64,000 nucleotides of DNA from Candidatus Latescibacterota bacterium (GTDB lineage Bacteria; JAAXHH01), in assembly GCA_022821085.1 (NCBI GenBank), contig JAJEEG010000007.1, positions 22,916-86,915 of the forward strand. Direction: 5' to 3'. The first letter of the stretch is position 1. Each line of letters starts with the position of its first letter. Shown piece by piece: positions 8,654-32,200 of the stretch. Both the position numbers and the translations under genes were made by a program. The notes under the pieces were generated by a model. That model was not told the origin of the DNA. It saw only the letters and a list, made by a program, of their open reading frames with translations, and did not search any database.

Positions 8654-11625
<2,972 letters not shown>

Positions 11626-12701: not shown

Positions 12702-14873
12702 TTGAACGCAGCGCACGACAACGAACAGCAGGAAGAACAGCAGGCCGGACAGCAGGCCAACCGCCTGGCCCACGAAACCAGCCCCTACCTCATTCAGCAC
12801 GCCCACAATCCCGTGGACTGGTATCCGTGGGGTGAAGAGGCCCTGGAGAAAGCCCGGTCGGAAGACAAGCCCGTGATGCTGTCCATCGGCTACTCGGCGT
12901 GCCACTGGTGCCACGTCATGGCCCACGAATCCTTCGAGAACGAGGAGACGGCGGAGCTCATGAACCGGCACTTCGTCAACGTCAAGGTGGACCGGGAGGA
13001 ACGGCCCGACCTGGACGAGATCTACATGAATGCCGTCACCGCCATGACGGGCAGCGGCGGCTGGCCCATGACCGTCTTCCTCACGCCCGGCCTGAAACCC
13101 TTCTACGGGGGCACCTATTTCCCTCCGGACGACCGGTACGGCCGGCCCGGGTTTCCCCGCATCCTCGAGGCGATAGCCCAGTTCTACCGGGAACGCCGGT
13201 CCGAAGCCGAGGAACAGGGCGACAAGCTTAAAGAGCGCCTCGTCGAACTGGCCGGGTTCACCTCAAGCAACGAGACCCTGGAAACGGGCCTGCTCGACAA
13301 GGCTTACGCCGGGATCGCCGCTTCCTATGACGCCACCAACGGCGGTTTCGGAACGCAGCCCAAGTTCCCCCCGTCCATGACGCTCTCCTTCCTGCTGCGC
13401 GAGCACCTCAGGTCCGGGCGGCAGACGGCCCTCGACATGGCTGCCCAATCCCTGGCGAAGATGGGCAACGGCGGGATCTACGACCACCTGGGCGGCGGGT
13501 TCCACCGGTATTCCGTCGACGCGAAGTGGCTGATCCCCCACTTCGAGAAGATGCTGTACGACAACGCGCTGCTCCTGGGGACGTACTCCGAGGCTTTCCA
13601 GGCCACGGGGGAACCCCTGTTCCGCAAGGTCGTTTCCGAAACGGCGTCGTACGTGATCGGAGAGATGCTGCAGCCCGGCGGGGGATTCTACGCGACGCAG
13701 GACGCGGACAGCGAGGGCGAGGAAGGCCGGTTCTTCGTGTGGACGCCGGACGAGATCAAGGCGGTCCTGGGGGACGAGAAGGGCCGCCTGTTCGCCCGTT
13801 ACTACGGCGTGGAGGAAGGGGGCAACTTCGAACACGGGACCAGCGTCCTGCACGTGGACGTCGGCCTGGAGCCCCTGGCCGCCCACCTGCAGGTGGCGCC
13901 GGACGAGTTGCGGGCGATCGTGTCCGAAGGCCGCCGGACCCTCTTCGATCACCGCGAAAAACGCGTGCACCCCGGACGGGACGAGAAGATCATGACGGAC
14001 TGGAACGGGCTGATGATCGGCAGCCTGGCCCGGGCGAGCCGCGTTTTCGGCGAACCGGCCTGGCTCGACGCGGCGGCGGATTCGATGGGGTTCGTCCTGG
14101 ACGCGCTGCACGAGGACGGCCGGCTCATGCATACGTTCAAGGACGGCCGCGCGCGGTTCAACGGCTACCTGGACGACTACGCTTTCACGGTTTCCGCCCT
14201 GCTCGACCTTTACGAGGCGACCTTCGACCCGGCCTGGTTCGCCCACGCCGAGGCACTCATGGAAACGACGATCGAGCGGTTCTGGGATCCGGAAGACGGA
14301 GGATTCTTCTTCACCAGCGACGACCACGAGACGCTCATCGTCCGGTCCAAGAACCCCTACGACAACGCGATTCCATCGGGCAATGCCGTGAGCGTGCAGA
14401 ACCTGCTACGGCTGGCCGCGTTTACCGGCAGGAACGATTACCGGGACCGGGCCGGTCAGACCCTCTCCCTCTTCACGGACTACATGGGCGCGGCGCCCGG
14501 GGGCTTCGGCCAGTTGCTGTGCGGACTCTCCTGGTATCTCGACAAGCCCGTCGAGATCGCCCTGGTCGGCGCCAGGGAGGATGATACCACGCGGGCCATG
14601 CTGGACCTGATCGACGGCACGTTCCTGCCGAACAAGGTAGTGGCCCTGTACGATCCGACCGGGGACGGCGGCCAAGTCGGCGGCCGTGCCGGGGCAGGCG
14701 GCCGTGTCGATGGCCAAGTCGGCGGCCGTGCGCCGGACCGCATCCCGCTTCTTGCCAACCGTCCACAGATCGACGGCGCGACCACGGCCTACGTCTGCGA
14801 GCAGTTCGTGTGCCGGCAGCCCGTGACCACGGTGGATGGGCTGGCCGAACTGCTTTCAATCAATCCCCAGTAA
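12702..14873 (+). CDS. yyaL: thioredoxin-domain protein YyaL (DUF255 / SSP411-like, six-hairpin glycosidase-like C-domain)
   Basis: [54 protein letters not shown] is the family N-terminus. The ORF-track start at 12465 overlaps the upstream gene. I prefer the in-frame TTG at 12702, immediately after the upstream stop. Confidence 0.85.
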
Positions 14874-15794
14874 CCGGGCGACAGCGCCCTTTCCCGCGGC
14901 TTGCTCGCGGGTGTAGTGCGCGGGCATCTGGCTGTCGGACCAGCGCCCGGCATTCTGCAATTCGACCAGGGTTGCGCCGCGCTGCGCGAGTTCCTGAGCG
15001 GTTCCGATGCGAAGGCTGTGCCCACTCACGCCCTTGATGCCGACCAGCTCCGCAGAGGCCTTGATGGCCAGCCGGGCGCCATCCACCGTCAGCCGGGCAT
15101 CGCTCATCCGGTCGCCTTTGAGCATCCGTCGAATGAGGGGCCCCTCCGTGTAGCCGGCTCTCTGCTGCAACTGCTGGATCGTTTCGACGGTCCGGGTGGT
15201 CAGAAAAAGGCTGGCGCCCTTTCCTTCCTGGTCCGTCTTGCTTCGGACCAATAGGAGTCGTCCACTCCCGTCAAACTCGGTGGTGATGTGTTCGCAATCG
15301 ATGGCGACGGCTTCTCCGATCCTCAACAAGGCATCGCTCATCACGCGAAACAGCGCGGCGTCCCTCAGTCCGGCCAGGGTGTCGGTGGCGACTGCGTTCT
15401 GTACCATGATCTTGACCGTCTCGCGAGTCAATCCCGTAACCTGGCCGCGGCCCCGGTTTCGACCTTCGCGACGGATCCCGGCCAGCGTCCGGTTCGTTAA
15501 CGGCCCCACGCTCGACGGGCGTCGATCCAGCTTCTCCCAGAAACGGACGGCCTGCACCACTACTGTTACGGTAGCGGGTGCCAGTCCCCTGGTATACAGG
15601 TGTGCGAGGTAGCCCGCAAGCGTAGTGTCGGTCAACGGCTGCCCATCCAGGTGCTGGAACAACTTGCGCAATGCATCGCCATACGCCTTTGCCGTGTTCG
15701 GCGCGATGCTGGCTTCCAGTAATCGCGCGACATCGACGGACGTTCCATTGGTCCTGTGGTCGAGGGTATGCTGTAAGGAAATGTTACGCTGCAT
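14856..15794 (-). CDS. Cre-like tyrosine site-specific recombinase
   Basis: ORF 14856..15824. From my memory of Cre, [16 protein letters not shown] resembles [26 protein letters not shown] resembles LLRIAEIARI, and [41 protein letters not shown] resembles SGHSARVGAARDMARAGVSIPEIMQAGGWTNVNIVMNYIRN. A GGAGA SD lies 7 nt before ATG 15794. The 3' end overlaps yyaL by 18 nt, convergently. Confidence 0.85.
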
Positions 15795-16570
15795 CGTACT
15801 ATCTCCACACAAGAGGTCCGACACGCTCTCACGGGGTAGAGATCGCTGTTACCCTTTATTCGGACGAGACAGGTAGGAAACCAGCTACTATCTCCTGCCG
15901 TTATCTGAAATGTTTGTTTTTGTGATATAAATGGAGTGGTTCAACAAATACCGGATGGCTGGGTTTGTAGGATCAGTCCCGCGGTGCCGACGGGCAAGGA
16001 CGGCTTTACCCGGGAACGGATTCGAAAGAGGGCAGTGCTTAAATACCGGGAACGTAAGCCATTTAAGCCGGTCCCCAATTCGCCGGTCTCCATCTTGCCG
16101 TTTCGTGGTCTTTTCATTGGTAAGGTACGCTTGGTTCGGGAGCCGGTCAACTACTAAGTGATCATTTATGTTTTTTATGTGATTTTACTCCGTATATATA
16201 TGATTAGATTGAGCTATAAGTCAAGAAAAAACTTCTTTTTTTATCATTTTCTGTGAGTTCCCTACCTGATCCGGACCCCGTTAAAACCTGGCAATGCGCC
16301 ACATATTGTCGGTCCTGCATCATCATTTTCCCATTCCTGACTTACCCTATCCTGCCCTGATGTAACCGGTCCTGGCTGACGTACTCGATCCTGCCTGACG
16401 TACTCGTCCCACCTTGCGACCAGATCCTTCCTGTGTATCCGGTACAGACCACAAATACCCTTCTGTACCCGAAATATTCGATCATACACCATCACAAAAC
16501 AGTGCGCGGGATCCAAATGCAAGCGAAAAATCAGACGGGGAGCCAGCCGCCTTCTGACGCTCGGTCTATT

Positions 16571-16754
16571 CATATTTAACTGAAAAAGTGCCCGATACGG
16601 TCTGAAATTCGACCAGTCTTGAACTCTGATTTGCAGTCTTGAGCCAAGTAATCTAAGTCAACCGACCTTAATTCGCGGGAAAGGAGGCGATATAGGCAAG
16701 TCTCGTGTTTTCGTCATTCCTTTAAGTAAGTGTTTCCATAAACGGGAGAACACA
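16571..16754 (+). promoter_or_regulatory. conserved upstream/leader block of collagen-like paralog 1
   Basis: The block starts with catatttaactgaaaaagtgcccgatac and ends with aattcgcgggaaaggaggcgatataggcaag...gtgtttccataaacgGGGAGaacacaATG. It is shared with blocks at 20472, 24291 and 26498. I could not place the TSS or -10/-35 boxes. Confidence 0.55.
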
Positions 16755-18155
16755 ATGCATTACCTCATAATTGCTGTATTGGCCTTCGCGCTTTCCGTGT
16801 TGGGATGCGAGGGCAAAACAGGCCCCGCAGGTCCGACTGGTCCGTCCGGCGCCGCAGGCCCGGCAGGTCCGGCTGGCCCGCAGGGTTCGACTGGCCCGGC
16901 AGGTCCAGCTGGTCCCCAGGGTCCGGCTGGTGCTGACGGTGCCGATGGTGCACCCGGTCCGCAGGGTGAGCCCGGTCCGGCAGGTCCGCAAGGCGAGAAG
17001 GGTGAACCGGGTGAGGATGGTGCACCTGGCACCGGAGTCGATCCAGGTACTGTCCAAGGGATCGTTAACGAAGTCGTCGCTGGCGGCATCCTGGCTGACG
17101 TGCACCACATCCTCTTGCTGAAGGACGGTGAAACAGACCCTGAAAAAGGCACTGTTATACCTGTTGCTGGTGAAGATGAGATCCAAGGCGTGAACGTTGG
17201 CCTGCTTGCAGGTAGTTCAACAACCTTTGCGGCCAAGGTCGCGAGCGTCAGCAAACAGCCGATTCCCTCTACGTTTACGTGGTCATCCGACGATGAGACG
17301 ACAGCCTCGGTGGATAACGGTACGATTACGGGTAATAGAAAAGGAGAGGCGACGGTAACCATGTCCGTCGATGGCCGTGGGATAGAAGTGGCATTCAATG
17401 TTACCGTACACGATGTCGTCAAGGGTATCGTAGCTTCGACTGGCGAGGATACCAGGCTTGCAGTGGGCGATGATATAACAGTCAATGCCGTCGCCTACGA
17501 CAAAGCCCAGGACGATATGCCGGGCGTCGATGGGGTCGTTGTTCCTGATGTAACCTTCACCTGGATGAGTTCCAATGTAGCCGTTGCAACAGTGGATGAA
17601 GACGGTGTGGTGACCGGTGTTGGTGCCGGAAGTGCTGAAATCACGGCACATGTAGGCGACGTCGCGAGCAACAAGATCGAAGTCACCGTATTCTCGATTC
17701 AGGGTATCGAACGCAGGCTGATACCGACTCTCCCCATTGCGGCGACGTATTTGGCTGTTGATGATTCGACTGCGGTTGATCCAACCGCTGACCCGGTGGT
17801 CTATCAGCCGGTATCCGCTATTACGATGGTGCCGACCAGTTTTAACATTACGGTGAATATCCAGGAGAAAGACCAGAATGGAGACTGGGCGAACCTCGAT
17901 TCCGGTGCTACAGGTTCGACGGTTACATTCATGAGTTTGGACACGGAGGTGATTGCATTCACCGGCGGTAGTTTTACTACAGCTAGCACTACTGCGGGTC
18001 CTGCGCACAGCGTATCAATAGGATCGGATCCTGCTGCTGGCCACGCTGTAGTAGGTCGGGGCACCGCCAGAGTGGAGATCTCTTCCAAGTATGCCCCCAC
18101 GATTTATATCGAGGTGGACATAACACTTCCTGCAAACTCCAAGGCGGGCAGTTGA
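16755..18155 (+). CDS. collagen-like triple-helix repeat lipoprotein with Big_2 domains (paralog 1 of 5)
   Basis: 466 aa. Lipoprotein signal [18 protein letters not shown], then 25 uninterrupted G-X-Y triplets, then Big_2-like segments ([31 protein letters not shown]; [32 protein letters not shown]). Confidence 0.9.
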
Positions 18156-18158
18156 CAT

Positions 18159-18428
18159 CGGGATAATCCGGGTCCCGTAGACAGGGCGCTGACAGAGTCC
18201 TGTGGCTTTGATGGGGTGCCTTCCCGGGCATCCCATCGGACCAAGTTCCGAGTGACCCCCGGAAGTTATCCCGACAGGGCAAGCAACACATCAGCATCCG
18301 CCCTGCATTTGTCTCGGTCATTTCGTTACAACTTCCCGTTCGCCCTGAGTAGGAGCCACAGGCCACTGAAAAGGGCGATCGGTTCCGAAAACAGGAAAAG
18401 CCCCACTGCAGTTAACGGGGCTTTTCTG
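18159..18428 (+). ncRNA. conserved structured 3'-UTR element, copy 1 (unclassified)
   Basis: It starts 4 nt after the stop codon. Helices seen: cgggataa/ttatcccg, tccggg/cccgga, variable hairpin GATGGGGTGCC-ttcccg-GGCATCCCATC, cagggcg/cgccctg, ccgttcgccct/agggcgatcgg. It ends in a terminator. Five copies are present in the window. Confidence 0.6.
18394..18428 (+). terminator. intrinsic terminator of paralog 1
   Basis: ggaaaagcccc-actgcagttaac-ggggcttttctg: GC-rich stem followed by a U-tract. Confidence 0.8.
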
Positions 18429-18527
18429 TATCCAGTGATACAGGTGAGAGCTCCACTATATCGCTCTCACTGGTTCTCGGCGGTATCCGACACCTTTTAG
18501 AAGTGTTTCCATAAACGGGAGAACACA

Positions 18528-19940
18528 ATGCATTACCTCATAATTGCTGTATTGGCCTTCGCGCTTTCCGTGTTGGGATGCGAGGGCAAGACCGGTCCCG
18601 CAGGACCGACGGGTCCTTCCGGCGCCGCTGGCCCGGCGGGTCCGGCTGGACCGCAGGGTTCGACTGGCCCGGCAGGCCCGGCAGGTCCCCAGGGTCCGGC
18701 TGGCGCTGATGGTGCCGATGGTGCTCCTGGTCCGCAGGGTGAGACCGGTCCGGCAGGTCCGCAAGGCGAGAAGGGTGAACCGGGTGAGGATGGTGCACCT
18801 GGCACCGGAGTCGATCCAGGTACTGTCCAGGGTATCGTTAACGAGGTCGTCGCTGGCGGCATCCTGGCTGACGTACACCACATCCTCTTGCTGAAGGACG
18901 GTGAAACAGACCCTGAAAAAGGCACTGTTATACCTGTTGCGGGTGAAGATGAGATCCAAGGCGTGGACGTTGGTCTGCTTGCAGGTAGTTCAACAACCTT
19001 TGCAGCCAAGGTCGCGAGCGTTAGCAAACAGCCGATTCCCTCTACGTTTACGTGGTCATCCGACGATGAGACGACAGCCTCGGTGGATAACGGTACGATT
19101 ACGGGTAATAGAAAGGGAGAGGCGACGGTAACCATGTCCGTCGATGGCCGTGGGATAGAAGTGGCATTCAACGTTACCGTACACGATGTCGTCAAGGGTA
19201 TCATAGCTTCGACTGGCGAGGATACCAGGCTTGCAGTGGGCGATGAGATAACGGTCAGTGCCGTCGCCTACGACAAAGCCCAGGACGATATGCCGGGCGT
19301 CGATGGGGTCGTTGTTCCTGATGTAACCTTCACCTGGATGAGTTCCAATGTAGCCGTTGCAACAGTGGATGAAGACGGCGTGGTGACCGGTGTTGGTGCC
19401 GGAAGTGCTGAAATCACGGCACATGTAGGCGACGTCGCGAGCAACAAGATCGAAGTCACCGTATTCTCGATTCAGGGTATCGAACGCAGGTTGATACCGA
19501 CGCTCCCCATTGCGGCGACGTATTTGGCTGTTGATGATTCGACTGCGGTTGATCCAACCGCTGACCCGGTGGTCTATCAGCCGGTATCCGCTATTACGAT
19601 GGTACCGGATTCCTTTATCATTTCGGTGATAATCCACGAGAAAAATCCAGATGGCGACTGGGTTCGATACAATGGACTCACCCGATTGGCTGGAGAGGCG
19701 ACTTTTACGAGTTTGGACCCGCATGTGCTTGCTTTTGTCGGTGGTAGTTTTACTACATCCTCCAATAATTCTGGAATAGGTTTCTCAGCAGTAATAGGGG
19801 CGGATCCTTCGGTGTCTTCACTCCATGGTGTGGTAGTGGGCCGGGGCACCGCTATAGTGGAGATCTCATACACGCATGGCCCTACAATCTATATCGAGGT
19901 GGACATTACACTTCCTGCTAACTCCAAGGCGGGCAGTTAG
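18528..19940 (+). CDS. collagen-like triple-helix repeat lipoprotein with Big_2 domains (paralog 2 of 5)
   Basis: 470 aa. It has the same signal peptide and 25 G-X-Y triplets. It is near-identical to paralog 1 for about 360 aa, then has a divergent ~100-aa segment, then the identical end [19 protein letters not shown]. Only about 30 nt of the conserved leader (gtgtttccataaacgggagaacaca) lies upstream. Confidence 0.9.
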
Positions 19941-19943
19941 CAT

Positions 19944-20211
19944 CGGGATAATCCGGGTCCCGTAGACAGGGCGCTGACAGAGTCCTGTGGCTTTGGTGGG
20001 GTGCCTTCCCGGGCATCCCATCGGACCAAGTTCCGAGTGACCCCCGGAAGTTATCACGACAAGGCAAGCAACACATCAGCATCCGCCCTGCATTTGTCTC
20101 GGTCATTTCGTTACAACTTCCCGTTCGCCCTGAGTAGGAGCTTCGGCCACTGAAAAGGGCGATCGGTTCCGAAAACTGGAAAAGCCCCGTTGCTGGTACG
20201 GGGCTTTTCTG
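19944..20211 (+). ncRNA. conserved structured 3'-UTR element, copy 2
   Basis: Same architecture as copy 1. The outer helix carries one mismatch (ttatcacg). Confidence 0.6.
20178..20211 (+). terminator. intrinsic terminator of paralog 2
   Basis: ggaaaagccccg-ttgctggta-cggggcttttctg. Confidence 0.8.
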
Positions 20212-20471
20212 CGTTTGACGATTTAATGTTGGTCCATCCGTCTCCCTCGCTTATCCCCTTACCAATTTTACGTTCCAGTCGTACCCGCTCCTATCTGACG
20301 TATTCAGTTCATACCTGTAATACCCCGATCTCTTACCGGTCGTACCTCGAGCTCCTTCTACGTACCCGACCAGACCTGACGTATCCGATTCACACTCCCA
20401 GCAAGAAACAGTGCGCGACACCCTATTCCGTCGGCCTTCCGACGAGCCAGCCTCCGCTCCCTGCTGCTCAG

Positions 20472-20657
20472 CATAATCATATTTAACTGAAAAAGTGCCC
20501 GATACGACCCTGAAACACGGTGGTTTGATCCGAAATCAGCAACTTTGGATGGCAATTTAGTCAACCGATCAATTCGCGGGAAAGGAGGCGATATAGGTCA
20601 GTTTGGGTCTTCGTCATTCCTTTTAGTAAGTAGTGTTTCCATAAACGGGAGAACACA
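20472..20657 (+). promoter_or_regulatory. conserved upstream/leader block of paralog 3
   Basis: cataatcatatttaactgaaaaagtgcccgatac...caattcgcgggaaaggaggcgatatagg...gtgtttccataaacgggagaacacaATG. Confidence 0.55.
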
Positions 20658-22058
20658 ATGCATTACCTCATAATCGCTGTATTGGCTCTCGGTTTGTCCC
20701 TCATGGGATGCGAGGGCAAGACAGGCCCCGCAGGTCCGACTGGTCCGTCCGGCGCCGCTGGCCCGGCAGGTCCGGCTGGCCCGCAGGGTTCGACTGGTCC
20801 GGCAGGTCCGGCTGGTCCCCAGGGTCCGGCTGGTGCTGATGGTGCCGCTGGTCCGGCAGGTCCGCAAGGTGAGAAGGGTGACACCGGTGAGACTGGCCCG
20901 GCGGGTCCCAAGGGTGATCCTGGTGACTCAGGTATCCCAACGGATATTCCGGGGAACATCCTGGCAACCGTTCATCATATCATTATAGGCCACATCGATG
21001 AAGATGGTGAAAAGGCTGGGAAGGTTACCTATTGGGCACCGAATTTCGTCCCGGCTGAAGGTACAGACGCCCTGTCCTATAACCTGGGCGTTGGTGATAT
21101 GGTTCAACTTGCTATCAAAGCTGGATCACAGGATGAAGAAGCGTTACCTGTTGAGTTCGCATACTCATCCGATGATGAAGTCAACGTAACGGTAAGCGAT
21201 GGCGGTTTGATCGAAGCCAAGAGATCGGGTGAAGCCACAATTACGGTTACGGCGGTTGGACGTGGAATAGCCATCGATATAGCCGTTAACGTGCTTTCCA
21301 GCGCTGATCACGTTGTTATAATGGGACCTGGTGGAGCCAATACCTCCAAAACTGCAAGTGGAGCCATCACCATACCGGAAGGCAGTTCCATTACGCTCAC
21401 AGCGGAAGCTAGAAAGAAAGATGGTTCGAAAATCAACGGTGCTTCCTTCTCGTGGGCTTCTAGTAATGATGCTATAGCTTCAGTTGATGATGGCGCGGTT
21501 ACGGCCAACGGGACAGGTACGGCTTCAATCACTGCCAGTTCGGGCGGCAAGACCAGTAAGGCTGTGAAAGTCACCGTTACGGCTGGTGGGATTAACGAGT
21601 TTGAAATCCAGTTGATTAATCCTATCGCCCAGGCCTACACAGTCAAACGACAAAGTTACGATGATGAAGAAGAAGCTGATGATTACAAGCTGCCTGACAA
21701 CACGATGGTTGTAAAACCTGTCAATTCAGCTGATCCTCCTGTCGTTGCGCCTCTGGTATACAGGTTCAGGCTGTGGGATCTGATAAATCGGAATGCAACC
21801 ACTGGATTGCCAACTGCAGAGGGTGACCAGGCAGGTAATTTTTCGCTGTCAGCCAATACTGACATCGTTGACCTGACTGGCATTGTAGTAGCTGCAGGAA
21901 CCGATACAGGTGCTTATTCGTTTACGGTACCCCCATCCGCCATTAGCAAGTTTGGCACTACGCAAATCGTTATTAGCCTTCCTGGAGCTTCTTCTCGATC
22001 CGTGAGTATTACCATATCTCCGGCAAGCGAGGATTCGACAGTTCCACAACAGTCGTAA
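20658..22058 (+). CDS. collagen-like triple-helix repeat lipoprotein with Big_2 domains (paralog 3 of 5)
   Basis: 466 aa. Signal [18 protein letters not shown], 24 G-X-Y triplets, Big_2-like segments ([32 protein letters not shown]; [31 protein letters not shown]) and a unique C-terminus. Confidence 0.9.
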
Positions 22059-22061
22059 CCT

Positions 22062-22330
22062 CGGGATAATCCGGGTCCCGTAGACAGGGCGCTGACAGAG
22101 TCCTGCGGTGCAGGCAGGGAAGGGTTCCCACCTTTCCCTGCCACACCAAGTTCCGAGTGACCCCCGGAGGTATCCCGACAGGGCAAGCAACACATCTGCA
22201 TCCGCCCTGCATTTGTCTCGGTCATTTCGTTACAACTTCCCGTTCGCCCTGAGTAGGAGCTTCGGCCACTGAAAAGGGCGATCGGATCTGAAAACAGGAA
22301 AAGCCCCGTTGCTGGTACGGGGCTTTTCTG
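22062..22330 (+). ncRNA. conserved structured 3'-UTR element, copy 3
   Basis: The conserved flanks match the other copies. The variable hairpin is replaced by GGCAGGGAAGG-gttccca-CCTTTCCCTGCC, a different sequence with the same stem-loop. Confidence 0.6.
22297..22330 (+). terminator. intrinsic terminator of paralog 3
   Basis: ggaaaagccccg-ttgctggta-cggggcttttctg. Confidence 0.8.
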
Positions 22331-22444
22331 CGTTCAACGGATTTTGGTAGCTGATGTCGCTGATGTAGCGGGTGTTACTGCTGTAGCGGGTATAGCGGGA
22401 CCTTGTAATCTCGACTATGACCGAGCAAGTGGGAATTCCCGCCC

Positions 22445-24019
22445 TCACTCATCCGCAAGCGGCCGAGAGATGACGCAGGCGTTGATGCCCCCGATCCCCA
22501 TGGACAGCTTGCCGGCGATCCCATCGGGAAGCGGGCAGGACGCGTCGTAGACGAACCGGTTGTGCAGGCTGCCGATTTCCGGGTTCACCTCGTCGCGGGA
22601 CAGGGGCGTGGGATATAGGGCGCCCCGTTCGTAACCGAGGTATTGCGCCGTCAGTTCCCATCCTCCGCCGGCGCTCATGCCGTGGCCGAAGGTGCCTTTC
22701 CGGGCGGTGACCGTCACGGAGCCGGGCACCATCTCGAGCAGGTTCTCCATTTCCAGGAAATCCCCGGGCGTCGCCGTGGCGTGCAGGTCCCACGAGGCGA
22801 TGTCTTCGGGGGAAACGCGGGCGTCCGCGATGGCCTGGCCGACCGCCAGCTGCGGGCCTTCCTTCGACGGCGTGATGATATGGTCGGCGTCGGAGCTGAC
22901 GCCAACGGCCAGGGGTTCCATGCCAACCGGGCTGAACCCCTTTTCCGTCATGTATTCGTAGTCCCCGATGATCCACAGCACGGAGCCGCCCGAGACGTGG
23001 GTGCCGCGCAGCCCGGTCAGGGGCTTGGACACGGCGCCGTCCGCGGCGGAGACGCGGGCGCGGTAGAAGGCGCCCACCAGCAGGGACGTGGGCGGCGGGT
23101 CCGTGGCGCCGACGACGACGGCCTTCGCCTCGCCGCGCCGGATGGCGTCCATGCCGAGTTTGAGGCACACGCCGAAGGTGGAGCAGGCGGCCACGGGCGC
23201 CAGGGACAGCCCGTTGATCTGCCCCATCATGGTGACCTGCGACGCGGGCGTGTTGTGGATATTCCAGATCAGGTCGGCCGAGACGCATTCCCACGGCGGT
23301 TCAGGCGCACCCCAGTCATCCTGCAGCTGTTGCTTGCGGCGCTGCTTCTCGCGGATGAGCTTCAGCTTGCCCGATTCGACGGTGCCCTCGACGTTCATCC
23401 CCTCGATCCTGGCGAGGGTCTCCAGGTAGGATCTCAGCTCTTCAGACTGGGAAGTCCAGTAGGCGTTCCAGGCTTCTTCGGCCTGGTCGCGCTTCGCGGA
23501 AGGAGCGGTCTCCGGATGGGGCGGCATGGCTTCGTCCACGCCTTCGTCGTCGTGCCGGGTAAGGTACGCGCGAAGCCGGGCGTTCCGTTCGGCCGATCCC
23601 CAGAACCGATCCCACGCCCGCTGCGCCCGGTACAGCTCCATGCTGATCCGGCTGATCGTCGGGATATTGCCCACGCCGGTGCCGATGTACACGTGGGCGG
23701 CCGTCCCCAGTGCCTGGAGTTCCTTTTCCAAACCCGGATTCTGCTCCAGCGCCTGGATGAAGGCTCCGACGGCATGCAGCGTGGTGGGGTCCATCTTGTC
23801 GACCAGGCGGGGGTACCGGTTCGACGGGAACCGGGCGTCGATCCATGCCCGGTAGTCCCCGAAGTCGAAGTCGGGTTCGCCGACCAGGAAGTTGTTGGGG
23901 CCGAACCCTTCAAAAGGCGCCAGCCAGCTTTCCGACCCTTCCAGGTTGCGGGCAAAGGCTGCCATGTTGGGCGAACGGGGCGCCACGATACCCCACCCGA
24001 ATATGCCGATTCTGCGCAA
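22445..24019 (-). CDS. beta-ketoacyl synthase (KAS I/II-like, thiolase fold) with a large charged insertion
   Basis: 524 aa. MRRIGIFGWGIVAP is the N-terminus. The active-site Cys context is VAACSTFG, and His contexts are LHATATPGD and KGTFGHGMSAGG. A helical insertion of about 140 aa is present. I saw no ACP or other fatty-acid synthesis genes nearby. Confidence 0.75.
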   Translation of the reverse strand: MRRIGIFGWGIVAPRSPNMAAFARNLEGSESWLAPFEGFGPNNFLVGEPDFDFGDYRAWIDARFPSNRYPRLVDKMDPTTLHAVGAFIQALEQNPGLEKELQALGTAAHVYIGTGVGNIPTISRISMELYRAQRAWDRFWGSAERNARLRAYLTRHDDEGVDEAMPPHPETAPSAKRDQAEEAWNAYWTSQSEELRSYLETLARIEGMNVEGTVESGKLKLIREKQRRKQQLQDDWGAPEPPWECVSADLIWNIHNTPASQVTMMGQINGLSLAPVAACSTFGVCLKLGMDAIRRGEAKAVVVGATDPPPTSLLVGAFYRARVSAADGAVSKPLTGLRGTHVSGGSVLWIIGDYEYMTEKGFSPVGMEPLAVGVSSDADHIITPSKEGPQLAVGQAIADARVSPEDIASWDLHATATPGDFLEMENLLEMVPGSVTVTARKGTFGHGMSAGGGWELTAQYLGYERGALYPTPLSRDEVNPEIGSLHNRFVYDASCPLPDGIAGKLSMGIGGINACVISRPLADE

Positions 24020-24290
24020 AGCAAGCCTCGCTATATCCTAAGGAAATCTCCGATTCTTCAAGGGATTCTCCCATTCTTCCTAGTCTCAACAGCCCCGTCA
24101 ATATACGCCGCGCGCGGGGTGGACTCAAGCCCAAACACCCTGCGGCTGGAATCGATGGGTAGGGACAACCTCGATCATCTGTCGGGCCACAGTAGGCTCA
24201 CCGCTGGTCTATCCACGCTTCTATCTCCCTTCCGACTCCTGGTTTTTCTCCCGCCTGACGTCCCTGCTCAGGTCCGACTATAAAGCTCAA

Positions 24291-24481
24291 CATAATCATA
24301 TTTAAGGGGAAAAGTACGCGATACGACCCTGAATTTCGGTGGTTTTGAACCGTAACCAGCAGTCCTGATTCTGGGAATTCAAGTCAGCCGATCAATTCGC
24401 GGGAAAGGAGGCGATATAGGCAAGTTTGGGTCTTCGTCATTCCTTCTAGTTAGTAAGTGTTTCCATAAACGGGAGAACACA
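24291..24481 (+). promoter_or_regulatory. conserved upstream/leader block of paralog 4
   Basis: cataatcatatttaaggggaaaagtacgcgatac...caattcgcgggaaaggaggcgatataggcaag...gtgtttccataaacgggagaacacaATG. Confidence 0.55.
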
Positions 24482-25963
24482 ATGCATTACCTCATAATTG
24501 CTGTATTGACTCTCGGTTTGTCCCTGTTGGGATGCGAGGGTAAGACAGGCCCCGCAGGTCCGACTGGTCCTTCCGGCGCCGCTGGCCCGGCAGGTCCGGC
24601 TGGCCCGCAGGGTTCGACGGGTCCGGCAGGCCCGGCAGGCCCCCAGGGTCCGGCTGGTGCTGACGGTGCCGATGGTGCTGCAGGCCCGGCTGGTCCCGCA
24701 GGTCCCCAGGGTGAGACTGGTCCGGCAGGTCCGCAGGGTGAGCAGGGTGAGCCAGGTGAAGCAGCTACACTTCCTCCTGGTTTAAGCCCGGATGAGATTC
24801 TCGGAATCCTCTCAGCAGACCATGTTGCTGCTATGGTTGTTGAACACTCCTCCGAAGCCTATGGTGGTTTGGCCGAGCTGACACCGGCAAGAATAGGGGA
24901 CGGTACGAGCATCCTTCTCAGAGTAGGCCAGGAAGCTACGGTCAAAGCTGTTGTCCGCACACAGGATGGCGCCATAGTTGAAGGTGCTGATCTGGTTTGG
25001 TCTATCGACGAGGAAGAGGAGAATATCTCGGTTGAAGATGGGGTTATCACTGCGCTTGCATCAAATTACAATATAGATGATGCCAAGTACAGTGCATCGA
25101 TGGTAAGCTTCAAGTCAGCTTCCCATCTCGTTGCCGGTGAGTTGTCGGTCATGGTTTCCAATGCGGTTGCCAAGGTCAAACTCAGCCAGGATAGTCTGAT
25201 CCCGTTGGCCATCAGTGAAACCACAATGATTACTGCCAGTGCGCTTGATGGTGATGATAAGCCGGTGCCTGATCTGGGTATGATGGGCAATTACGACTGG
25301 TCCAGCGATTCGGGTTCTGCCGGTGTTGCCGCTGATAAGCACGCTTCAGGCGAGATGAAAGGCAAGTTTATCGGTAAGGCCGGCAGTCAGGCAACGATTA
25401 CTGGAAAGAGCAGTGGCGACGCTTCCATTACCGCCGCTATCGAAGGTGCGTCGGCTTCCGTCGATGTCGCCGTTTCCGGTTCTAGCATCACCCGTACCAT
25501 TATCTACACCGACCCTGATACCCGTACTTTCACGTGGGACCGCGACCCGGCGGCTTCGGCGGCGTGGGAGGACGCAACCATAACTACCACCTTTGATGTC
25601 GAGTTGTACAATGCGATTTCTGACGCGCAAATCTCCAACTTCGATAATAGTGCTTTAACTCTCAATGTCAGTGGTAATAAGGCTTCGACAGTTGGGTTGC
25701 TAGCTACCACACCTAACGCCGCTGCAAATGGTGTAGTAACAGTGCAGGTTGCAGTTGCGAATTTTGACGCTGGGGACGCCTCCGCAACCCCAGCCGTACC
25801 ACCAGCTGGGACCGCCCTGGCCAACGCTACCACTCAACCGGCCGGCATTCACGAGACAGATGCCGGTTCCATGAGTTACATCGTAGAACTGAAGGTGAAT
25901 GGCGCGGTATCCAAGCGTATTCATTTCACGATAGCGTATGGTGCGGCACCACCGGCCGAGTAA
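24482..25963 (+). CDS. collagen-like triple-helix repeat lipoprotein with Ig-like domains (paralog 4 of 5)
   Basis: 493 aa. Signal [18 protein letters not shown], 25 G-X-Y triplets, Big_2-like segments ([22 protein letters not shown]; [15 protein letters not shown]...[15 protein letters not shown]) and a unique C-terminus. Confidence 0.9.
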
Positions 25964-25966
25964 CCT

Positions 25967-26235
25967 CGGGATAATCCGGGTCCCGTAGACAGGGCGCTGA
26001 CAGAGTCCTGTGGCACGTGGGGGAGGGGTGCCAACCCTTCCCCTATAAGCCAAGTTCCGAGTGACCCCCGGAGTTATCCCGACAGGGCAAGCAACATGTC
26101 AGCATCCGCCCTGCATTTGTCTCGGTCATTTCGTTACAACTTCCCGTTCGCCCTGAGTAGGAGCTTCGGCCACTGAAAAGGGCGATCGGTACCGAAGATA
26201 AGAAAAGCCCCGTTGAAGCATACGGGGCTTTTCTG
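25967..26235 (+). ncRNA. conserved structured 3'-UTR element, copy 4
   Basis: The conserved flanks are present. The variable hairpin is GGGGAGGG-gtgccaa-CCCTTCCCC. Confidence 0.6.
26202..26235 (+). terminator. intrinsic terminator of paralog 4
   Basis: gaaaagccccg-ttgaagcata-cggggcttttctg. Confidence 0.8.
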
Positions 26236-26497
26236 TGTTTAACGATATAATAGTTGGACCACCCGTCTCCCTCGCCAATCCCCTTACCAATTCTACGTAC
26301 CTGTCGTACCCGCTCCTACCTGATGTATCCGATTCATACCTGTAATACCCCGATCTCTTACCCGTCTTACCTCGCGATCCAACTGAATTACCCCATCCTA
26401 CCTGACGTATCCGATTCACACTCCCAGCACGTAACACTGCGTAACACCCGATTTCATCCGCCTTTGAACACACCAGCCGCCACGCCCTGAAGTTCCG

Positions 26498-26664
26498 CAT
26501 AATCATATTTAACTGAAAAAGTGCCCGATAAGACCTGAAATACGAGCAGTCTTGAGCCTGTTAATTCAAGTCAACCGATCAATTCGCGGGAAAGGAGGCG
26601 ATATAGGCAAGTTTCGTGTTTTCGTCATTCCTTTTAGTAGTGTTTCCATAAACGGGAGAACACA
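26498..26664 (+). promoter_or_regulatory. conserved upstream/leader block of paralog 5
   Basis: cataatcatatttaactgaaaaagtgcccgata...caattcgcgggaaaggaggcgatataggcaag...gtgtttccataaacgggagaacacaATG. Confidence 0.55.
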
Positions 26665-28134
26665 ATGCATTACCTCATAATTGCTGTATTGACTCTCGGT
26701 TTGTCCCTGTTGGGATGCGAGGGTAAGACAGGCCCCGCAGGTCCGGCTGGTCCGTCCGGCGCCGCCGGCCAGGCAGGTCCGGCTGGCCCGCAGGGTTCGA
26801 CGGGTCCGGCAGGTCCGGCTGGCCCGGCAGGTGCTGATGGTGCTGACGGTGCTGACGGTGCTCAGGGCCCGGCAGGTCCGGCAGGCCCAGCTGGCCCGGC
26901 AGGTGCTGATGGTGCGCAAGGTCCTCCAGGTCCGCAAGGTGAGAAGGGTGACACCGGTGAGCAGGGTCCGCAAGGTGAGAAGGGTGACACCGGTGAGCAG
27001 GGTCCGCAAGGTGAGAAGGGTGACACCGGCGAGCAGGGTCCTGTAGGTCCAGGTCTACCGATCGAGGGAATTGATCCCATCGAGCTGGCCCAGGCGGACC
27101 ACATCGCCTACTTGGTACATGATCCTTCTGACGATCCGCCGGAGGAAAAATCGGAAGCGCCGATCGATATCGTCTTAAGGGTCGGTGAAGAACGCAATGT
27201 CAAGGCTGCCGTCCGTGCACAGAGTGGCAAGATCCTTGAGAGCATTCCGGTAATGATTGGGATCCACAAGGATGAAAACGATGCCATCACCTTCGAAGAC
27301 GGCGTGCTAACCGCCGTCGGGGCCGGGTCAGCCGTTGTCAGGGCTGTGTCGGATTTGTCCGGGCTTGCTGGTGATATAAATGTCATGGTGACCAAGCCAA
27401 TCGCCAAGGTCGCTTTCATGGTCGGTGACCCTGCCGTTGCATTGAGCGAACCAGTCGTATTGGCCGTGAGCCAGACACATGACCAGGTGATAACCGCCGT
27501 GGCCCAAGATGAAGACGGCAAGGCAATTGCGCCGCGTTCCAACTGGTCCTGGGATTCCGGAACCGTAGCCTCCGTGGAGCAACAGAAGGATGCGGACGAC
27601 GCGCTCCTGATGATGGGTGCTGTCGTCAAGATCACCGGGGCGAGTGGCGGCGACGGCACGGTTATGGCGACGGCCGAAGGCGTGAGCGGCAGTATCGACG
27701 TGAGCGTGACCGGCCAGACCAAGACCGTTTTCATTAGAGCTTCGACCTCAAGTAACGGCAACACCTTTGTTTGGGATCGAGGTAGAGACTCTGACACCAG
27801 CACCCCAGCAATCGACGTAGCTTGGAATTACGCCAATACTCAATTCCAGGTGTTCCTGTACGACATCGTTTCCAATGAGAGGGTCATCGGTACGGTCAAT
27901 GTAGTATCAGAAACCGCTACTGTTGCTGCGGTCGATGCTGGTTCAGTAACCACGACACTCGCTGGAGTGGCAGCCCCACTTGTCACGGTTACACCCCTTC
28001 CTACTGACCCTGGTCAAACAGACCCGGCTACTTCCAATGCAGGAACAAAAACGTCGGTCGTTAAATTGACCGCTACCGGCGCCGATCCTGTTAACATCCT
28101 GTTCACTGTTAGGATCGTGAATGCGCCAGAATAA
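26665..28134 (+). CDS. collagen-like triple-helix repeat lipoprotein with Ig-like domains (paralog 5 of 5)
   Basis: 489 aa. It has the same signal peptide and about 37 G-X-Y triplets, including [12 protein letters not shown] three times. Ig-like segments include [16 protein letters not shown] and [28 protein letters not shown]. Confidence 0.9.
26938..27045. repeat. 36-nt tandem repeat x3 inside the collagen tract of paralog 5
   Basis: ggtgagaagggtgacaccggtgagcagggtccgcaa occurs three times (the third copy has 3 substitutions), encoding [12 protein letters not shown]. Confidence 0.85.
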
Positions 28135-28137
28135 CCT

Positions 28138-28405
28138 CGGGAAAATCCGGGTCCCGTAGACAGGGCGCTGACAGAGTCCTGTGGCTTTGGTGGGGTGCCT
28201 TCCCGGGCACCCCATCGGACCAAGTTTCGAGTGACCCCCGGAGTTATCCCGACAGGGCAAGCAACACATCAGCATCCGCCCTGCATTTGTCTCGGTCATT
28301 TCGTTACAACTTCCCGTTCGCCCTGAGTAGGAGCCTCCGGCCACTGAAAAGGGCGATCGGTCCCGAAAAAAAGGAAAGCCCCGTTGCATCTACGGGGCTT
28401 TTCTG
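28138..28405 (+). ncRNA. conserved structured 3'-UTR element, copy 5
   Basis: The variable hairpin is GGTGGGGTGCC-ttcccg-GGCACCCCATC. Relative to copy 1, the G-U pair at position 7 becomes G-C and the A-U pair at position 2 becomes G-U. Confidence 0.6.
28373..28405 (+). terminator. intrinsic terminator of paralog 5
   Basis: ggaaagccccg-ttgcatcta-cggggcttttctg. Confidence 0.8.
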
Positions 28406-28500
28406 TATCCAAATATTTTGACAGCCATCCTGTCGGTGTTGTCATTTGCAGCCCTCGCCCAGGGTGCAGGAGGCTTTTCCAAGTAACTCGAACTATCCAG

Positions 28501-29221: not shown

Positions 29222-32200
29222 ATGGTTTCCTTCTTCCAAAAACACAGCAGTCGTGGGATCTTCCGACGCATTGCCGCATCACTCCCTAAACCAGGTGCTG
29301 ACGCGCTAACGGATCGCTGGCACGCCGTGTTGCTCGTTTTCCTGTCCCTATCCCTGTTTTTTCCGCTGGTGTTTGCCTGCGGTAGGGACAATCCCACACA
29401 GTCTCGTTCGGCGACCGCGTTCCGCATCGTGGTTACACCGGAGACGGCAGACCTATCCTCCACCGGTGAAACGTTACGTCTCAGCGCCCGAGTACTGGAC
29501 AAAAGCGACCGGGAGGTTCCCGCATCCCCGGTTTCCTGGCGCAGCAGCGACGATCAGGTGGTTTCAGTGAGTGCCGACGGCCTGGTCACCGCGGTCGGCG
29601 AGGGCAGCGCTATCGTAATCGCCATGGCCGGACAGAAGACGGCCCAGGCGCGGGTGACGGTGTCGGATCCCGTGCGGCGGACGTTGACTGCCCTGTACAA
29701 AACCACGGGCGGCGAGAACTGGAAGAATAGCGTAAACTGGTTGAGCGACGAGCCCGTTCATCAATGGTACGGTGTGTCGACGGTCTCGTCCTCGAGCACG
29801 CCAGAGGTGCGAGCCCGAGCCAGCGTGGCCGGCGTGGCACTGAATTTGCCTGACAACGGCCTTACCGGTCCGATCCCGCCTGAGTTGGGCGAAATGGTCT
29901 TCCTTCGAGTGCTGGATCTTTCCGACAACGGTCATACCGGTACTATTCCTCCTGAACTGGGCAACCTGGTCCGGCTCGAAGTGCTGGACCTGTCCAACAA
30001 TGCTTTGACCGGATCCGTCCCGTCTGAACTGGGTGACCTGCCGGTCCTGAAGTCACTCCTGCTACACGGCAACACCGGGATGTTCGGTCCCCTGCCTGAC
30101 TCGTTCGTCCGGCTTACGGGCCTGGAAACCCTGGAACTGACGGGCACGGGTCTGTGCGCGCCTTCGGACGCGGGATTCCAAAGGTGGCTTGCCGGGATCG
30201 CGACCCGGCGGGGCGTACAGACTTGCGGATCGGGGACGGACCAGGACCGGCAGACACTGATCGCCCTGTACGAGGCGACGGACGGACCGAACTGGTCGAA
30301 CAATGCCAACTGGCTGAGCCAGGCGCCACTGGACCGCTGGTACGGCGTCTCGGCGACATCATCCGGCCGCGTGCGCAACCTGCATCTTGCGAACAACGGG
30401 TTGTCCGGTCCAATTCCGACCGCGCTGGGCAATCTCACCGCGCTGGTGTCTCTGGATCTCTCGGACAACCGGTTGACGGGCGTCATCCCGCCGGCCCTGT
30501 TTACCCTGGCCAATCTCCAGACGCTGGACCTGTCCGGAAACCTGTTCAACCAATCTGAATCGGACGACCGCGACGCCCTGGTGGCGCTGTACAATGCCAC
30601 CGACGGCCCGAACTGGGTGTACAGTACGAACTGGCTAAGCCAGGCACCGCTGGGAGATTGGTACGGGGTAACAACCGACGATACGGGCAGGGTGACGCAT
30701 CTTCAGCTGTATACAGTAAATGGCGAGGAGCGCGTCGACGACGTCGCCGGCAAGACCAGCAACGGGCTGTCCGGCAACCTTCCCCCGGAACTGGGCAACC
30801 TGGGCAGCCTGCAGCGTCTGTCTCTCAACTATAATTCATTGACGGGTCCCATTCCACCAGAGCTGGGAAACCTGAGTAACCTGCGACGCCTGGACCTTGA
30901 CGTCAACCAGTTGTCGGGCAATATCCCTTCCGAACTGAGCCGCTTGAGTAATCTGGAAAGCCTGGACCTTCGCCGCAACCAGTTAACCGGTCCCGTTCCC
31001 TCCTGGCTGGGTAACCTGAGCAACCTGAAGAACTGGTTGGACCTTGGATACAATCAACTGACAGGTCCCATTCCTTCGGAATTGGGCCGCCTGAGTAATC
31101 TGACATTCCTGGCACTCCGCGGTAATCAGTTGTCCGGCAATATCCCTCCGGAACTGGGCCGCATGAGAGATTTGGAAAGCTTGTATCTCCAAAATAACAT
31201 GTTGTCAGGCGCATTACCCTCGTCGCTGAGTAGTCTCACCAACCTGCAATTCCTGTGGCTGGGCAACACGCAGTTGTGTGCGCCGACAGACGCTGTGTTC
31301 CAGGCATGGCTCGCCGGGATACCGTACACAAGTGGCGTCGTGAACTGCGGTCTGGTGGGGCCGGAGCCGGGAAACGACCGGGCCGCCCTGGTGGCGCTGT
31401 ACAATGCCACCGATGGCCCGAACTGGGTGTATAGCACGAACTGGCTGAGCAATGCGCCGCTGGGAGATTGGTACGGGGTAACAACCGACGATACGGGCAG
31501 GGTGACGCATCTTCAGCTTTACACCGTAAATGGCGAGGAGCGCGTCGACGATGTTGCGGGCAAGGCCAGCAACGGCCTGTCCGGCAACCTCCCACCTGAA
31601 CTGGGTAACCTGGGCAGCCTTCAGCGCCTGTCTCTCAACTACAACGCGTTGACAGGCCCCATTCCGCCGGAACTGGGCAACCTGGCGAACCTGCGACGCC
31701 TGGACCTTGACGTCAACCAGTTGTCGGGCAATATCCCTTCCGAACTGAGCCGACTGAGTAATCTGGAAAGTCTGGACCTTAGCCGCAACCAATTAACCGG
31801 TCCTGTTCCCTCCTGGCTGGGAAATCTGAGCAACCTGACGAATTGGTTGGTCCTTGCTGACAACAAACTGACCGGTCCCATTCCTTCCGAACTGGGCAAC
31901 CTGAGCAAACTTCTAAGCCTGAACGTTGCTGGCAACCAGTTGTCCGGCGCGTTGCCCTCTTCGCTGGGTAACCTCACCTACTTGCGATGGCTGCGGCTGA
32001 GCAACAACGAGTTGACTGGCGCGTTACCTCCGTCGCTGAGTAATCTCACCAACCTGCAATACCTATATCTAGACAACACGCAGTTGTGTGCGCCGACAGA
32101 CACCGTGTTCCAGGCATGGCTCGGTGGGATTCCAAACAAAAGTAGCGTTGTGAACTGCGGCCTGGTGGGGCCGGAGCCGTCGAACGATCGCGCCGCCCTT

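Follow-up and report, generated by a model that had tools for sequence, protein, structure and literature searches.

Probable nested DNA inversion of collagen-stalked lipoprotein genes beside a Cre-like recombinase in a Candidatus Latescibacterota bacterium

In this study, we have analysed a 64,000-nucleotide stretch of the Candidatus Latescibacterota bacterium assembly GCA_022821085.1 (contig JAJEEG010000007.1, positions 22,916 to 86,915 of the forward strand; the window), in which a gene for a Cre-like tyrosine recombinase (rec) lies next to five genes for collagen-like surface lipoproteins (g1 to g5, Table 1). An original prediction, made from the letters of the window, had proposed five same-strand genes with a common leader and signal peptide, and this description stands: five forward-strand open reading frames start where it had placed them, the 26 nt preceding the ATG (AGTGTTTCCATAAACGGGAGAACACA) are identical in all five, and every protein begins with a signal peptide that carries a lipobox (MHYLIIAVL...(S)(V/L)(L/M)GC). 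The 20-mer ATGCATTACCTCATAATTGC is found five times at no more than one mismatch, against 0 occurrences expected by chance. The predicted G-X-Y tract is present, its length of 24 to 37 triplets having to be corrected to 26 in g1 to g4 and 38 in g5 (a GCE triplet counted), and the shared 3' untranslated region (UTR) of about 270 nt is there as well (about 270-290 nt, with 63 nt identical in all five copies). The cores and C-termini, proposed to differ, do so in most pairs (31-40% amino-acid identity overall, with the N-terminus carrying most of the similarity), whereas g1 and g2 are 89% identical and have diverged at the C-terminus. The variable cores are indeed of lower G+C (0.49-0.56) than yyaL, the recombinase gene and a gene for a beta-ketoacyl-synthase-like protein (the KAS gene; 0.63-0.67 for these three). 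Finally, the five genes are co-oriented, but they are not contiguous, since the KAS gene splits g3 from g4.

The products are lipid-anchored, collagen-stalked surface proteins with Ig-like domains, a reading that we base on the lipobox, the G-X-Y run, the Big_2 domains and the structural matches of g4. The hidden Markov model searches that the prediction had called for gave scores above cutoff for Pfam Collagen (PF01391) in all five proteins, for Big_2 in g1 to g3 and for Phage_integrase in rec. An AlphaFold (AF2) model of the g4 body (predicted local distance difference test, pLDDT, 76) is a string of beta-sandwich domains whose best Foldseek matches are the S-layer proteins SbsC, EA1 and SbsB and the adhesins FdeC, LigA and invasin; bodies of the g4 type have just 21 relatives among 5.8 billion proteins. 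The NCBIfam models SclB, SclA and Lcl gave weak matches confined to the G-X-Y region (35-55 bits against cutoffs of 325-500), so these full-length adhesin models do not reach their cutoffs, and the anchor is an N-terminal lipobox, not LPXTG. Upstream, the conserved block that forms the putative 5' UTR of g1 also precedes g3, g4 and g5, and g2 does not have this block of about 200 nt. Within the leader (16729-16754 and its equivalents), the ribosome-binding site of all five genes lies inside an imperfect inverted repeat, GTGTTTCC-ATAAAC-GGGAGAACAC, a hairpin that may serve translational control; as a recombination site we rejected it, because zero junctions map there.

The recombinase gene is divergent from the array and its 3' end overlaps yyaL, a DUF255/YyaL-type gene that ends at 14873, both as predicted. 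Its product scores 46.2 bits against PF00589 (cutoff 27.1), has Cre as its best match in the PDB (E 1e-9), and keeps the catalytic set R, K, HxxR, W and Y intact in the Cre alignment (LLRIGE, RSKTD, GHSLRIG, GRW, HYTRE), at residues that we take to correspond to R173, K201, H289/R292, W315 and Y324 of Cre. Scores against XerD (45 bits, cutoff 330) and XerC (39.5 bits, cutoff 335) are both below cutoff, and a Xer-type dimer resolvase with an adjacent dif site was rejected on account of these low scores and because the locus has no gene-strand or skew switch. Relatives of rec at 77-93% identity occur in 19 species-level metagenome-assembled genomes (MAGs), labelled Gemmatimonadota, Latescibacterota or just "bacterium"; the isolate names in the records point to sponge and coral metagenomes as the source of several. 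Genomes of about 3.8-3.9 Mb all keep one gene order (rec, yyaL, oxidoreductase, DDAH-like, ligA), with 83-95% protein identity.

The original prediction had considered that rec might belong to a separate integrative element. We found no phage or integrative-element genes flanking it and a syntenic neighbourhood across species, and rejected the idea that rec is the integrase of a resident prophage, as conserved housekeeping genes flank this copy in all small-genome relatives. Relatives of about 60% identity, however, are found in regions of prophage character, along with RadC, SSB and terminase, which is why the family is probably phage-derived, the copy of the window having become fixed in the chromosome. 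The recombinase adjoins the array in the window and in all 10 loci with a usable upstream flank (11 genomes); in L018 and L024 (L-numbers are our labels for the related loci compared with the window), the first family gene is reached at the contig end. Arrays without a recombinase, which the prediction had named as contrary evidence, were not encountered: every array seen adjoins rec, and elsewhere there are single members. It is from this adjacency that we infer rec to be the catalyst of the inversions described below.

A 12-bp core, TAWTCATATWTA, stands in direct orientation upstream of g1, g3, g4 and g5, and in inverted orientation once, beside rec (in the rec-side half-site termed IRL in Table 1); the original prediction had not seen this inverted copy at 16195-16206. 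The IRL half adjoins rec in all genomes, and the flank on its other side alternates. In the window, this place is taken by the P-flank, which reads AAAAAAAGAAGTTTTTTC-TTGACT-TATAGCTCAATC. Between the inverted core and the core of site 1 lies the segment S, which contains three repeats of about 20 nt of the type CTGAC(G/T)TA (16337-16395). Degenerate tandem repeats of about 20 nt of this kind (CTGAC(G/T)TAYCC..CCTGCC) were also noted upstream of other sites, at 20228-20509 and 26253-26535 and in L035 at 800-1100 and 9230-9500; the recombinase or a regulator may bind them as accessory sites. We also considered a 12-nt inverted repeat (15870-15881/16257-16268) as the switch boundary, and rejected it because the boundaries obtained by comparison are 16194-16214 and 16559-16587.

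Table 1. Features of the recombinase-lipoprotein locus (window coordinates) and, in the last row, of related loci (coordinates of the loci named).
Feature	Position	Strand	Remarks
rec, Cre-like tyrosine recombinase	14856-15794 (to 15824 from GTG)	-	312 aa from ATG, 322 aa from upstream GTG
IRL, rec-side half-site and inverted core	16176-16206	-	core TAATCATATATA at 16195-16206, then TACGGAGTAAAATCAC
P-flank	16207-16240	-	A/T-rich tract and -35-like TTGACT at 16219-16224; faces rec in this assembly
Segment S, putatively invertible	16207-16566	.	about 360-370 bp, inverted core to site-1 core
Site 1 core TATTCATATTTA	16567-16578	+	upstream of g1
g1 putative 5' UTR	16579-16754	+	conserved; motifs D6 and D7, then 26-nt leader with ribosome-binding site
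g1	16755-18155	+	collagen-stalk lipoprotein, Big_2 Ig-like domains, 466 aa
3' element copy 1	18152-18440	+	bidirectional-looking terminator
g2	18528-19940	+	recent tandem duplicate of g1; C-terminus diverged
3' element copy 2	19937-20225	+	
Site 3 core TAATCATATTTA	20474-20485	+	upstream of g3
g3	20658-22058	+	collagen/Ig-like lipoprotein, 466 aa
3' element copy 3	22055-22344	+	
KAS gene (beta-ketoacyl-synthase-like)	22445-24019	-	between g3 and g4; conserved anchor, 94-97% aa identity in relatives
Site 4 core TAATCATATTTA	24293-24304	+	upstream of g4
g4	24482-25963	+	collagen stalk and string of Ig-like beta-sandwich domains, 493 aa
3' element copy 4	25959-26249	+	
Site 5 core TAATCATATTTA	26500-26511	+	upstream of g5
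g5	26665-28134	+	collagen/Ig-like lipoprotein, 489 aa, 38 GXY triplets
3' element copy 5	28131-28419	+	
Simple segments flanked by inverted repeats beside rec relatives	L031 9713-9919; L032 9744-9904; L036 9538-9947		

Comparison of the locus in related genomes, which the prediction had also suggested, revealed both exchanges of junctions and differences in copy number. L020 and L022 carry the equivalent of window 16194-16587 in inverted form, and L024 does so in part, while both flanks stay collinear (rec-to-g1 spacer against orthologues); segment S has the orientation of the window in six other genomes, and the segment boundaries are an imperfect inverted repeat that contains the 12-bp core. 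Among 14 sequences, the P-flank adjoins the rec-side half in nine (ATATACGGAGTAAAATCAC...; window, L018, L021, L023, L025, L026, L028, L029 and L034) and a gene-side half in five (TTA(A/T)GGGGAAAAGT..., then 5' UTR and ATG; L020, L022, L024, L035/L010 and L042). Where the locus covers the rec side in this second group (L020, L022, L024 and L035), the rec-side half bears the reciprocal, non-P flank. There is one copy of the P-flank in the window and one in each of 10 genomes. Because P and non-P flanks swap between the rec-side and gene-side halves, the exchange is conservative and reciprocal, and falls within or next to TCATAT(W)TA; this is the product expected of a tyrosine recombinase with a 6-8-bp overlap region.

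The inversions differ in extent. In three genomes, the segment of about 370 bp is inverted alone and P faces gene 1, while one short metagenome contig has P facing a family gene whose position in the array is not covered. A metagenome scan with the P-flank pattern returned a single contig. In OZ241920.1, a block of three genes, those closest to rec, is inverted, two further genes keep their usual orientation, the P-flank stands before the fourth gene, and the divergent junction holds an S-like segment between two inverted copies of the site. This arrangement is the product predicted for recombination of IRL with site 4, and the inversions are therefore nested. Moreover, the gene-facing states are scattered on a neighbour-joining tree of rec and yyaL, which implies at least four independent inversion events. 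The sites, the reciprocal exchange of junctions, the single P-flank and the nesting of the inversions can thus be read from the compared sequences themselves. The original prediction had argued that the co-orientation of the genes excludes inversion. This was wrong: inversion is what we observed, and it is possible despite the co-oriented genes because one copy of the site lies inverted next to the recombinase.

One metagenome sample (ERZ23491428, and the Logan assembly of its run SRR16351690) adds a further observation. Exact look-ups of the ATG-start form of rec, g3, g5 and KAS returned contigs that are all from this sample and its sequencing run, including for KAS an extra contig from a second, independent assembler; exact-protein look-ups of the GTG-start form of rec, of g1 and of g4 returned nothing. 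Contigs whose rec is 100% identical stop at window 16206, and those with an identical KAS stop at 24301 in both assemblies (ENA scaffold and k=31 Logan contig); the overlap with the adjoining scaffold is 55 nt. Down to a length of 13 nt, no terminal k-mer at either break occurs a second time in the window, and local repeats are therefore not the cause of these contig ends, and sites 3 and 5, which are equally repetitive, lie unbroken inside contigs. Positions 16206 and 24301 are the last bases common to the alternative junctions predicted for an inversion between IRL and site 4, and this match suggests that the sample holds a subpopulation with a g4-facing arrangement.

More distant relatives of the recombinase offer a simpler picture. 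In Latescibacterota genomes of 5.7-7.3 Mb, rec relatives of 77-79% identity have, immediately upstream, a segment flanked by inverted repeats of 15-27 nt that are 107-364 bp apart, opposite a divergent gene for a secreted protein (Table 1). The -35 element lies inside the segment and the -10 element inside the inverted repeat, the spacing and sequence being TTGACA-17-TATAAT (perfect) in L032 and TTGACA-17-TATAGT in L031. Because of these promoter segments, the locus in the lineage of the window resembles a simple inverton that has been elaborated to serve several targets. In one large genome (L033, 3748-8570), the rec relative adjoins genes that we read by eye, from their N-terminal sequences, as type I-E CRISPR-Cas, and no inverted repeat was detectable upstream of rec there.

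Could these differences have arisen without a dedicated switch? The locus might be a static family of paralogues that grew by tandem duplication, with ends kept alike by gene conversion or by purifying selection on a regulatory RNA and cores that diverged under diversifying selection; orientation differences would then be rare, fixed RecA rearrangements, and the recombinase an unrelated neighbour. For such rearrangements, the inverted repeats (about 12-21 bp and imperfect) are too short to be used efficiently by RecA, and at least four independent inversions at exactly the same core, with clean reciprocal junctions, are difficult to reconcile with rare accidents. The same is true of contig ends that fall on two cores in one sample, and of distant rec relatives with their own promoter segments flanked by inverted repeats. 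The static family does account for g1 and g2, a plain tandem duplication, for the concerted evolution of the 3'-element copies within a genome (described below), for solitary members elsewhere, and for L030, which retains rec without any array. On balance, we consider it unlikely.

Based on these results, we think it likely that the locus undergoes nested, site-specific DNA inversion, as a shufflon-like system of phase and antigenic variation with expression of one gene at a time. The P-flank and the gene-side core together read TTGACT-16-CATATT, a good sigma-70-type arrangement with an A/T tract upstream, and this is presumably a working promoter, a reading to which the promoter segments beside the distant rec relatives lend independent support; facing rec, the P-flank gives TTGACT-16-CATATA, and in the non-P flanks no -35 is conserved at the proper spacing. 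In the proposed mechanism, the Cre-like recombinase would recombine the lone inverted site (16195-16206) with any of the four direct sites (those of g1, g3, g4 and g5), crossing over within or next to TCATAT(W)TA. In the state of the window, the P-flank would abut the rec-side half and point at rec, and inversion with site n would set it against the half-site of gene n, completing the TTGACT-16-CATATT promoter. Genes 1 to n-1 would be flipped passively, and with n of 4 or more (IRL with site 4 or 5) so would the KAS gene, each event involving either the 370-bp segment alone or the segment with one or more whole genes. As a strong terminator closes every family gene, transcription from P would reach no more than one of the collagen-stalk Ig-like surface lipoproteins at a time. 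Switching would occur within clones, and genes without P would be silent. The recombination-driven surface-variation locus of the original prediction is supported in this form, by the adjacency, the reciprocal junctions, the one P-flank per genome and the contig ends; its mechanism of deletion or excision is not.

A number of observations do weigh against a switch of this kind. The promoter call relies on a consensus of the E. coli type in a phylum with uncharacterised promoters, and a sigma-70 promoter scan of the region did not flag the rec-facing version of P. The commonest state drives no family gene from P, which faces rec in 9 of 14 sequences, and the family genes may therefore have other promoters. 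Furthermore, g2 has no site upstream, no clear dyad-symmetric binding arms are definable around the core, and some family members are not beside the recombinase and differ in their upstream region. In L030 (9300-10957), rec (79% identity) stands beside yyaL with no core, P-flank or family gene nearby, the gene in the place of the array being adenosylhomocysteinase-like as read by eye from its N-terminal sequence. Lastly, the differences between genomes and the contig breaks could be fixed differences of co-existing strains, not switching within a clone.

The gene content of the locus varies as well. Across genomes there are 0-4 family genes between rec and KAS, with bodies that are 30-73% identical. 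In L024 (455-500) and L028 (9399-9450), a switch core is fused straight to a terminator (TAATCATATTTAAAGGGAAAAGCCCCG...), as though a gene had been deleted between GGGAAAAG microhomologies and had left this scar. To judge from the copy numbers, the g1/g2 tandem duplication and these site-to-terminator remnants, deletion and duplication appear to occur on an evolutionary scale; signs of either as a programmed outcome were not found among the compared loci. The original prediction had inferred that recombination between the co-oriented copies would lead to deletion, circular excision or duplication. Spelled out, such a model takes the direct sites or the long 5' and 3' homologies as the recombining blocks, includes re-insertion of excised cassettes, and lets gene content vary and not the state of expression. 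Four direct sites would permit excision if the enzyme accepts them, the cores fused to terminators are what a gene deletion should leave, and the range of 0-4 genes among species would follow. Nevertheless, every junction exchange that we observed is an inversion that uses the one inverted site, the g1/g2 duplication has its junction away from any site, neither circular nor empty-site junctions were seen, and copy number is seen to change only between species. We regard this mechanism as distinctly improbable, and favour nested inversion.

Each family gene is followed, from its stop codon, by a structured element of about 270-290 nt that ends in an intrinsic, bidirectional-looking terminator. 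The predicted fold is highly structured (-115 kcal/mol for the five window copies). With nhmmer we found 58 copies in the loci and aligned 35 distinct ones, which combine long invariant stretches with one arm that has 32 different sequences and at least six unrelated stem families. This variable arm is always paired, as a hairpin of 12-17 bp with z of about -3 to -7 (-0.9 in one copy), and the other helices have compensatory pairs. Searches of Rfam 15 gave no match at gathering thresholds and none at E <= 1, and we propose the element as a candidate unclassified structured RNA with a strongly covarying hairpin. A small Cys-rich minus-strand reading frame within it (MTETNAGRM...) was rejected, as a 1-nt indel between copies breaks the frame. 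Copies within a genome share derived features and have therefore evolved in concert. We also found solitary family members with the 3' element outside the array (L001 4709-6136, at about 2.2 Mb of OZ241920.1, and L009 6914-7966), of which the L001 gene lies 430 kb from rec with an unrelated upstream region and no switch core. Because the element also follows this distant gene, it would seem to be a hallmark of the gene family and not of the switch. Its role is a matter of guesswork, mRNA stabilisation or some other post-transcriptional function being one guess.

A conserved, folded element after each gene also invites comparison with integrons, in which case rec would be an integron integrase and the 3' block an attC-type folded site delimiting mobile cassettes. 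The divergent position of the recombinase relative to a co-oriented array fits this idea, as does the shape of the element, a long imperfect hairpin with a tip that is variable yet paired. However, no IntI-specific model matches rec at E <= 0.01, the only hit being NF040815 ("XerA/integron integrase") with 49 bits against a cutoff of 220. The would-be cassettes are paralogous genes, each with a conserved 5' region of its own, recombination junctions fall at the 5' cores and not at the 3' element, and a solitary family gene distant from any recombinase has the element behind it, too. An integron-like system is thus extremely improbable here.

Taking nested inversion as the basis, a more far-reaching account can be offered tentatively, and we judge it slightly more apt to fail than to hold. 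In this account, a domesticated, phage-type, Cre-like and self-coupled invertase of sponge and coral symbionts would use a split promoter to toggle between rec and a menu of trimeric, collagen-stalked Ig lipoproteins, resulting in true one-at-a-time antigenic variation in an uncultivated, non-pathogenic symbiont of animals, and each family mRNA would carry a new structured 3' RNA domain of about 270 nt that might, for example, mark, stabilise or localise the transcript.

Other large or unusual genes share the window. Directly past the array (29222-35986) lies the gene for a 2254-aa protein that has a Big_2 domain at its N-terminus, collagen repeats at its C-terminus and leucine-rich repeats by the dozen, with no switch core upstream of it; large leucine-rich-repeat proteins are also encoded near phage-borne rec relatives (L040 and L041). 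At 55997-62326, a 2109-aa protein has an SprA_N domain (type IX secretion translocon-like) and might be relevant to the export route of the large surface proteins of this organism. A low-G+C island at 46805-49448 (0.49-0.53) encodes an AAA_15/AbiEii-like ATPase with DUF3696 and a protein with an RNA ligase domain, and may be a defence island.

Programmed inversion of DNA as a means of surface variation is familiar from pathogens and gut commensals (Mycoplasma, Bacteroides, Campylobacter); on such switching in sponge symbionts, or in the Gemmatimonadota/Latescibacterota, our literature searches found nothing. Were the system active, the symbionts would display at any time a single one out of several collagen-like surface fibres with Ig domains, which bears directly on how they might escape feeding by sponge cells or attack by phages. 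The predicted junctions are explicit and can be checked in existing long-read sponge metagenomes. As a potential tool, the locus has a Cre-like invertase that is compact, a core site that is short and defined, and a design with a split promoter, and it adds an unclassified, strongly covarying 3' RNA element.

Among known systems, the closest parallels are the Mycoplasma loci vpma, vsp and vsa, in which a tyrosine recombinase beside a family of lipoprotein genes with conserved 5' regions, a unique promoter and a terminator per gene brings about site-specific inversion (PMC2268961). The locus described here resembles vpma of M. agalactiae, vsp of M. bovis and vsa of M. pulmonis (with the tyrosine recombinases Xer1, Mbr and HvsR) in its adjacent tyrosine recombinase and surface lipoprotein family, in the conserved 5' UTR and signal peptide joined to variable bodies, in sites within the 5' region and in the terminator of each gene. 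There are clear differences as well. The hosts here are of another phylum, being sponge- and coral-associated MAGs labelled Gemmatimonadota or Latescibacterota, the recombinase resembles Cre (its closest solved structure), and a housekeeping-type gene lies inside the array. The putative promoter is apparently split, with a -35 that would travel with the inverted DNA and a -10 in the core, and would alternate between the recombinase gene and its targets. All genes are co-oriented in the resting state, leaving one inverted site to do all the work, and the cargo consists of collagen-stalk Ig-like proteins, each gene with a structured 3' element of about 270 nt.

The sap locus of Campylobacter fetus, with one promoter on an invertible segment that flips alone or together with flanking paralogous surface-protein genes having conserved 5' ends, is similar in its logic, and the arrangement of OZ241920.1 is just such a nested product. 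Nested inversion at sap, reported by Dworkin and Blaser in 1997, is said to be RecA-dependent and to use homologies of about 600 bp, whereas the exchange here maps to a 12-bp core beside a dedicated tyrosine recombinase. The E. coli fimS switch (FimB/FimE) and the phase-variable lipoprotein and S-layer loci of Bacteroides share a segment of about 100-400 bp flanked by inverted repeats, an adjacent tyrosine recombinase gene and a downstream gene for a surface structure. This is the layout around the rec relatives of L031, L032 and L036, and of segment S itself; unlike simple invertons, the lineage of the window has more than two states, with extra direct sites before further genes, and its putative promoter would be completed across the crossover instead of lying wholly inside the segment. 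As in Scl1/Scl2, BclA and Lcl, a G-X-Y collagen region would present a variable globular part at the cell surface, but the anchor here is an N-terminal lipobox in place of LPXTG or the exosporium, the scores are far below the family cutoffs, and the distal part is a string of Ig-like domains. Lastly, the R64 shufflon also relies on one tyrosine recombinase (Rci) and several sites to generate multiple inversion states of a surface-adhesin locus; Rci shuffles 3' coding segments of pilV, whereas here whole genes would be swapped relative to one half of a promoter.

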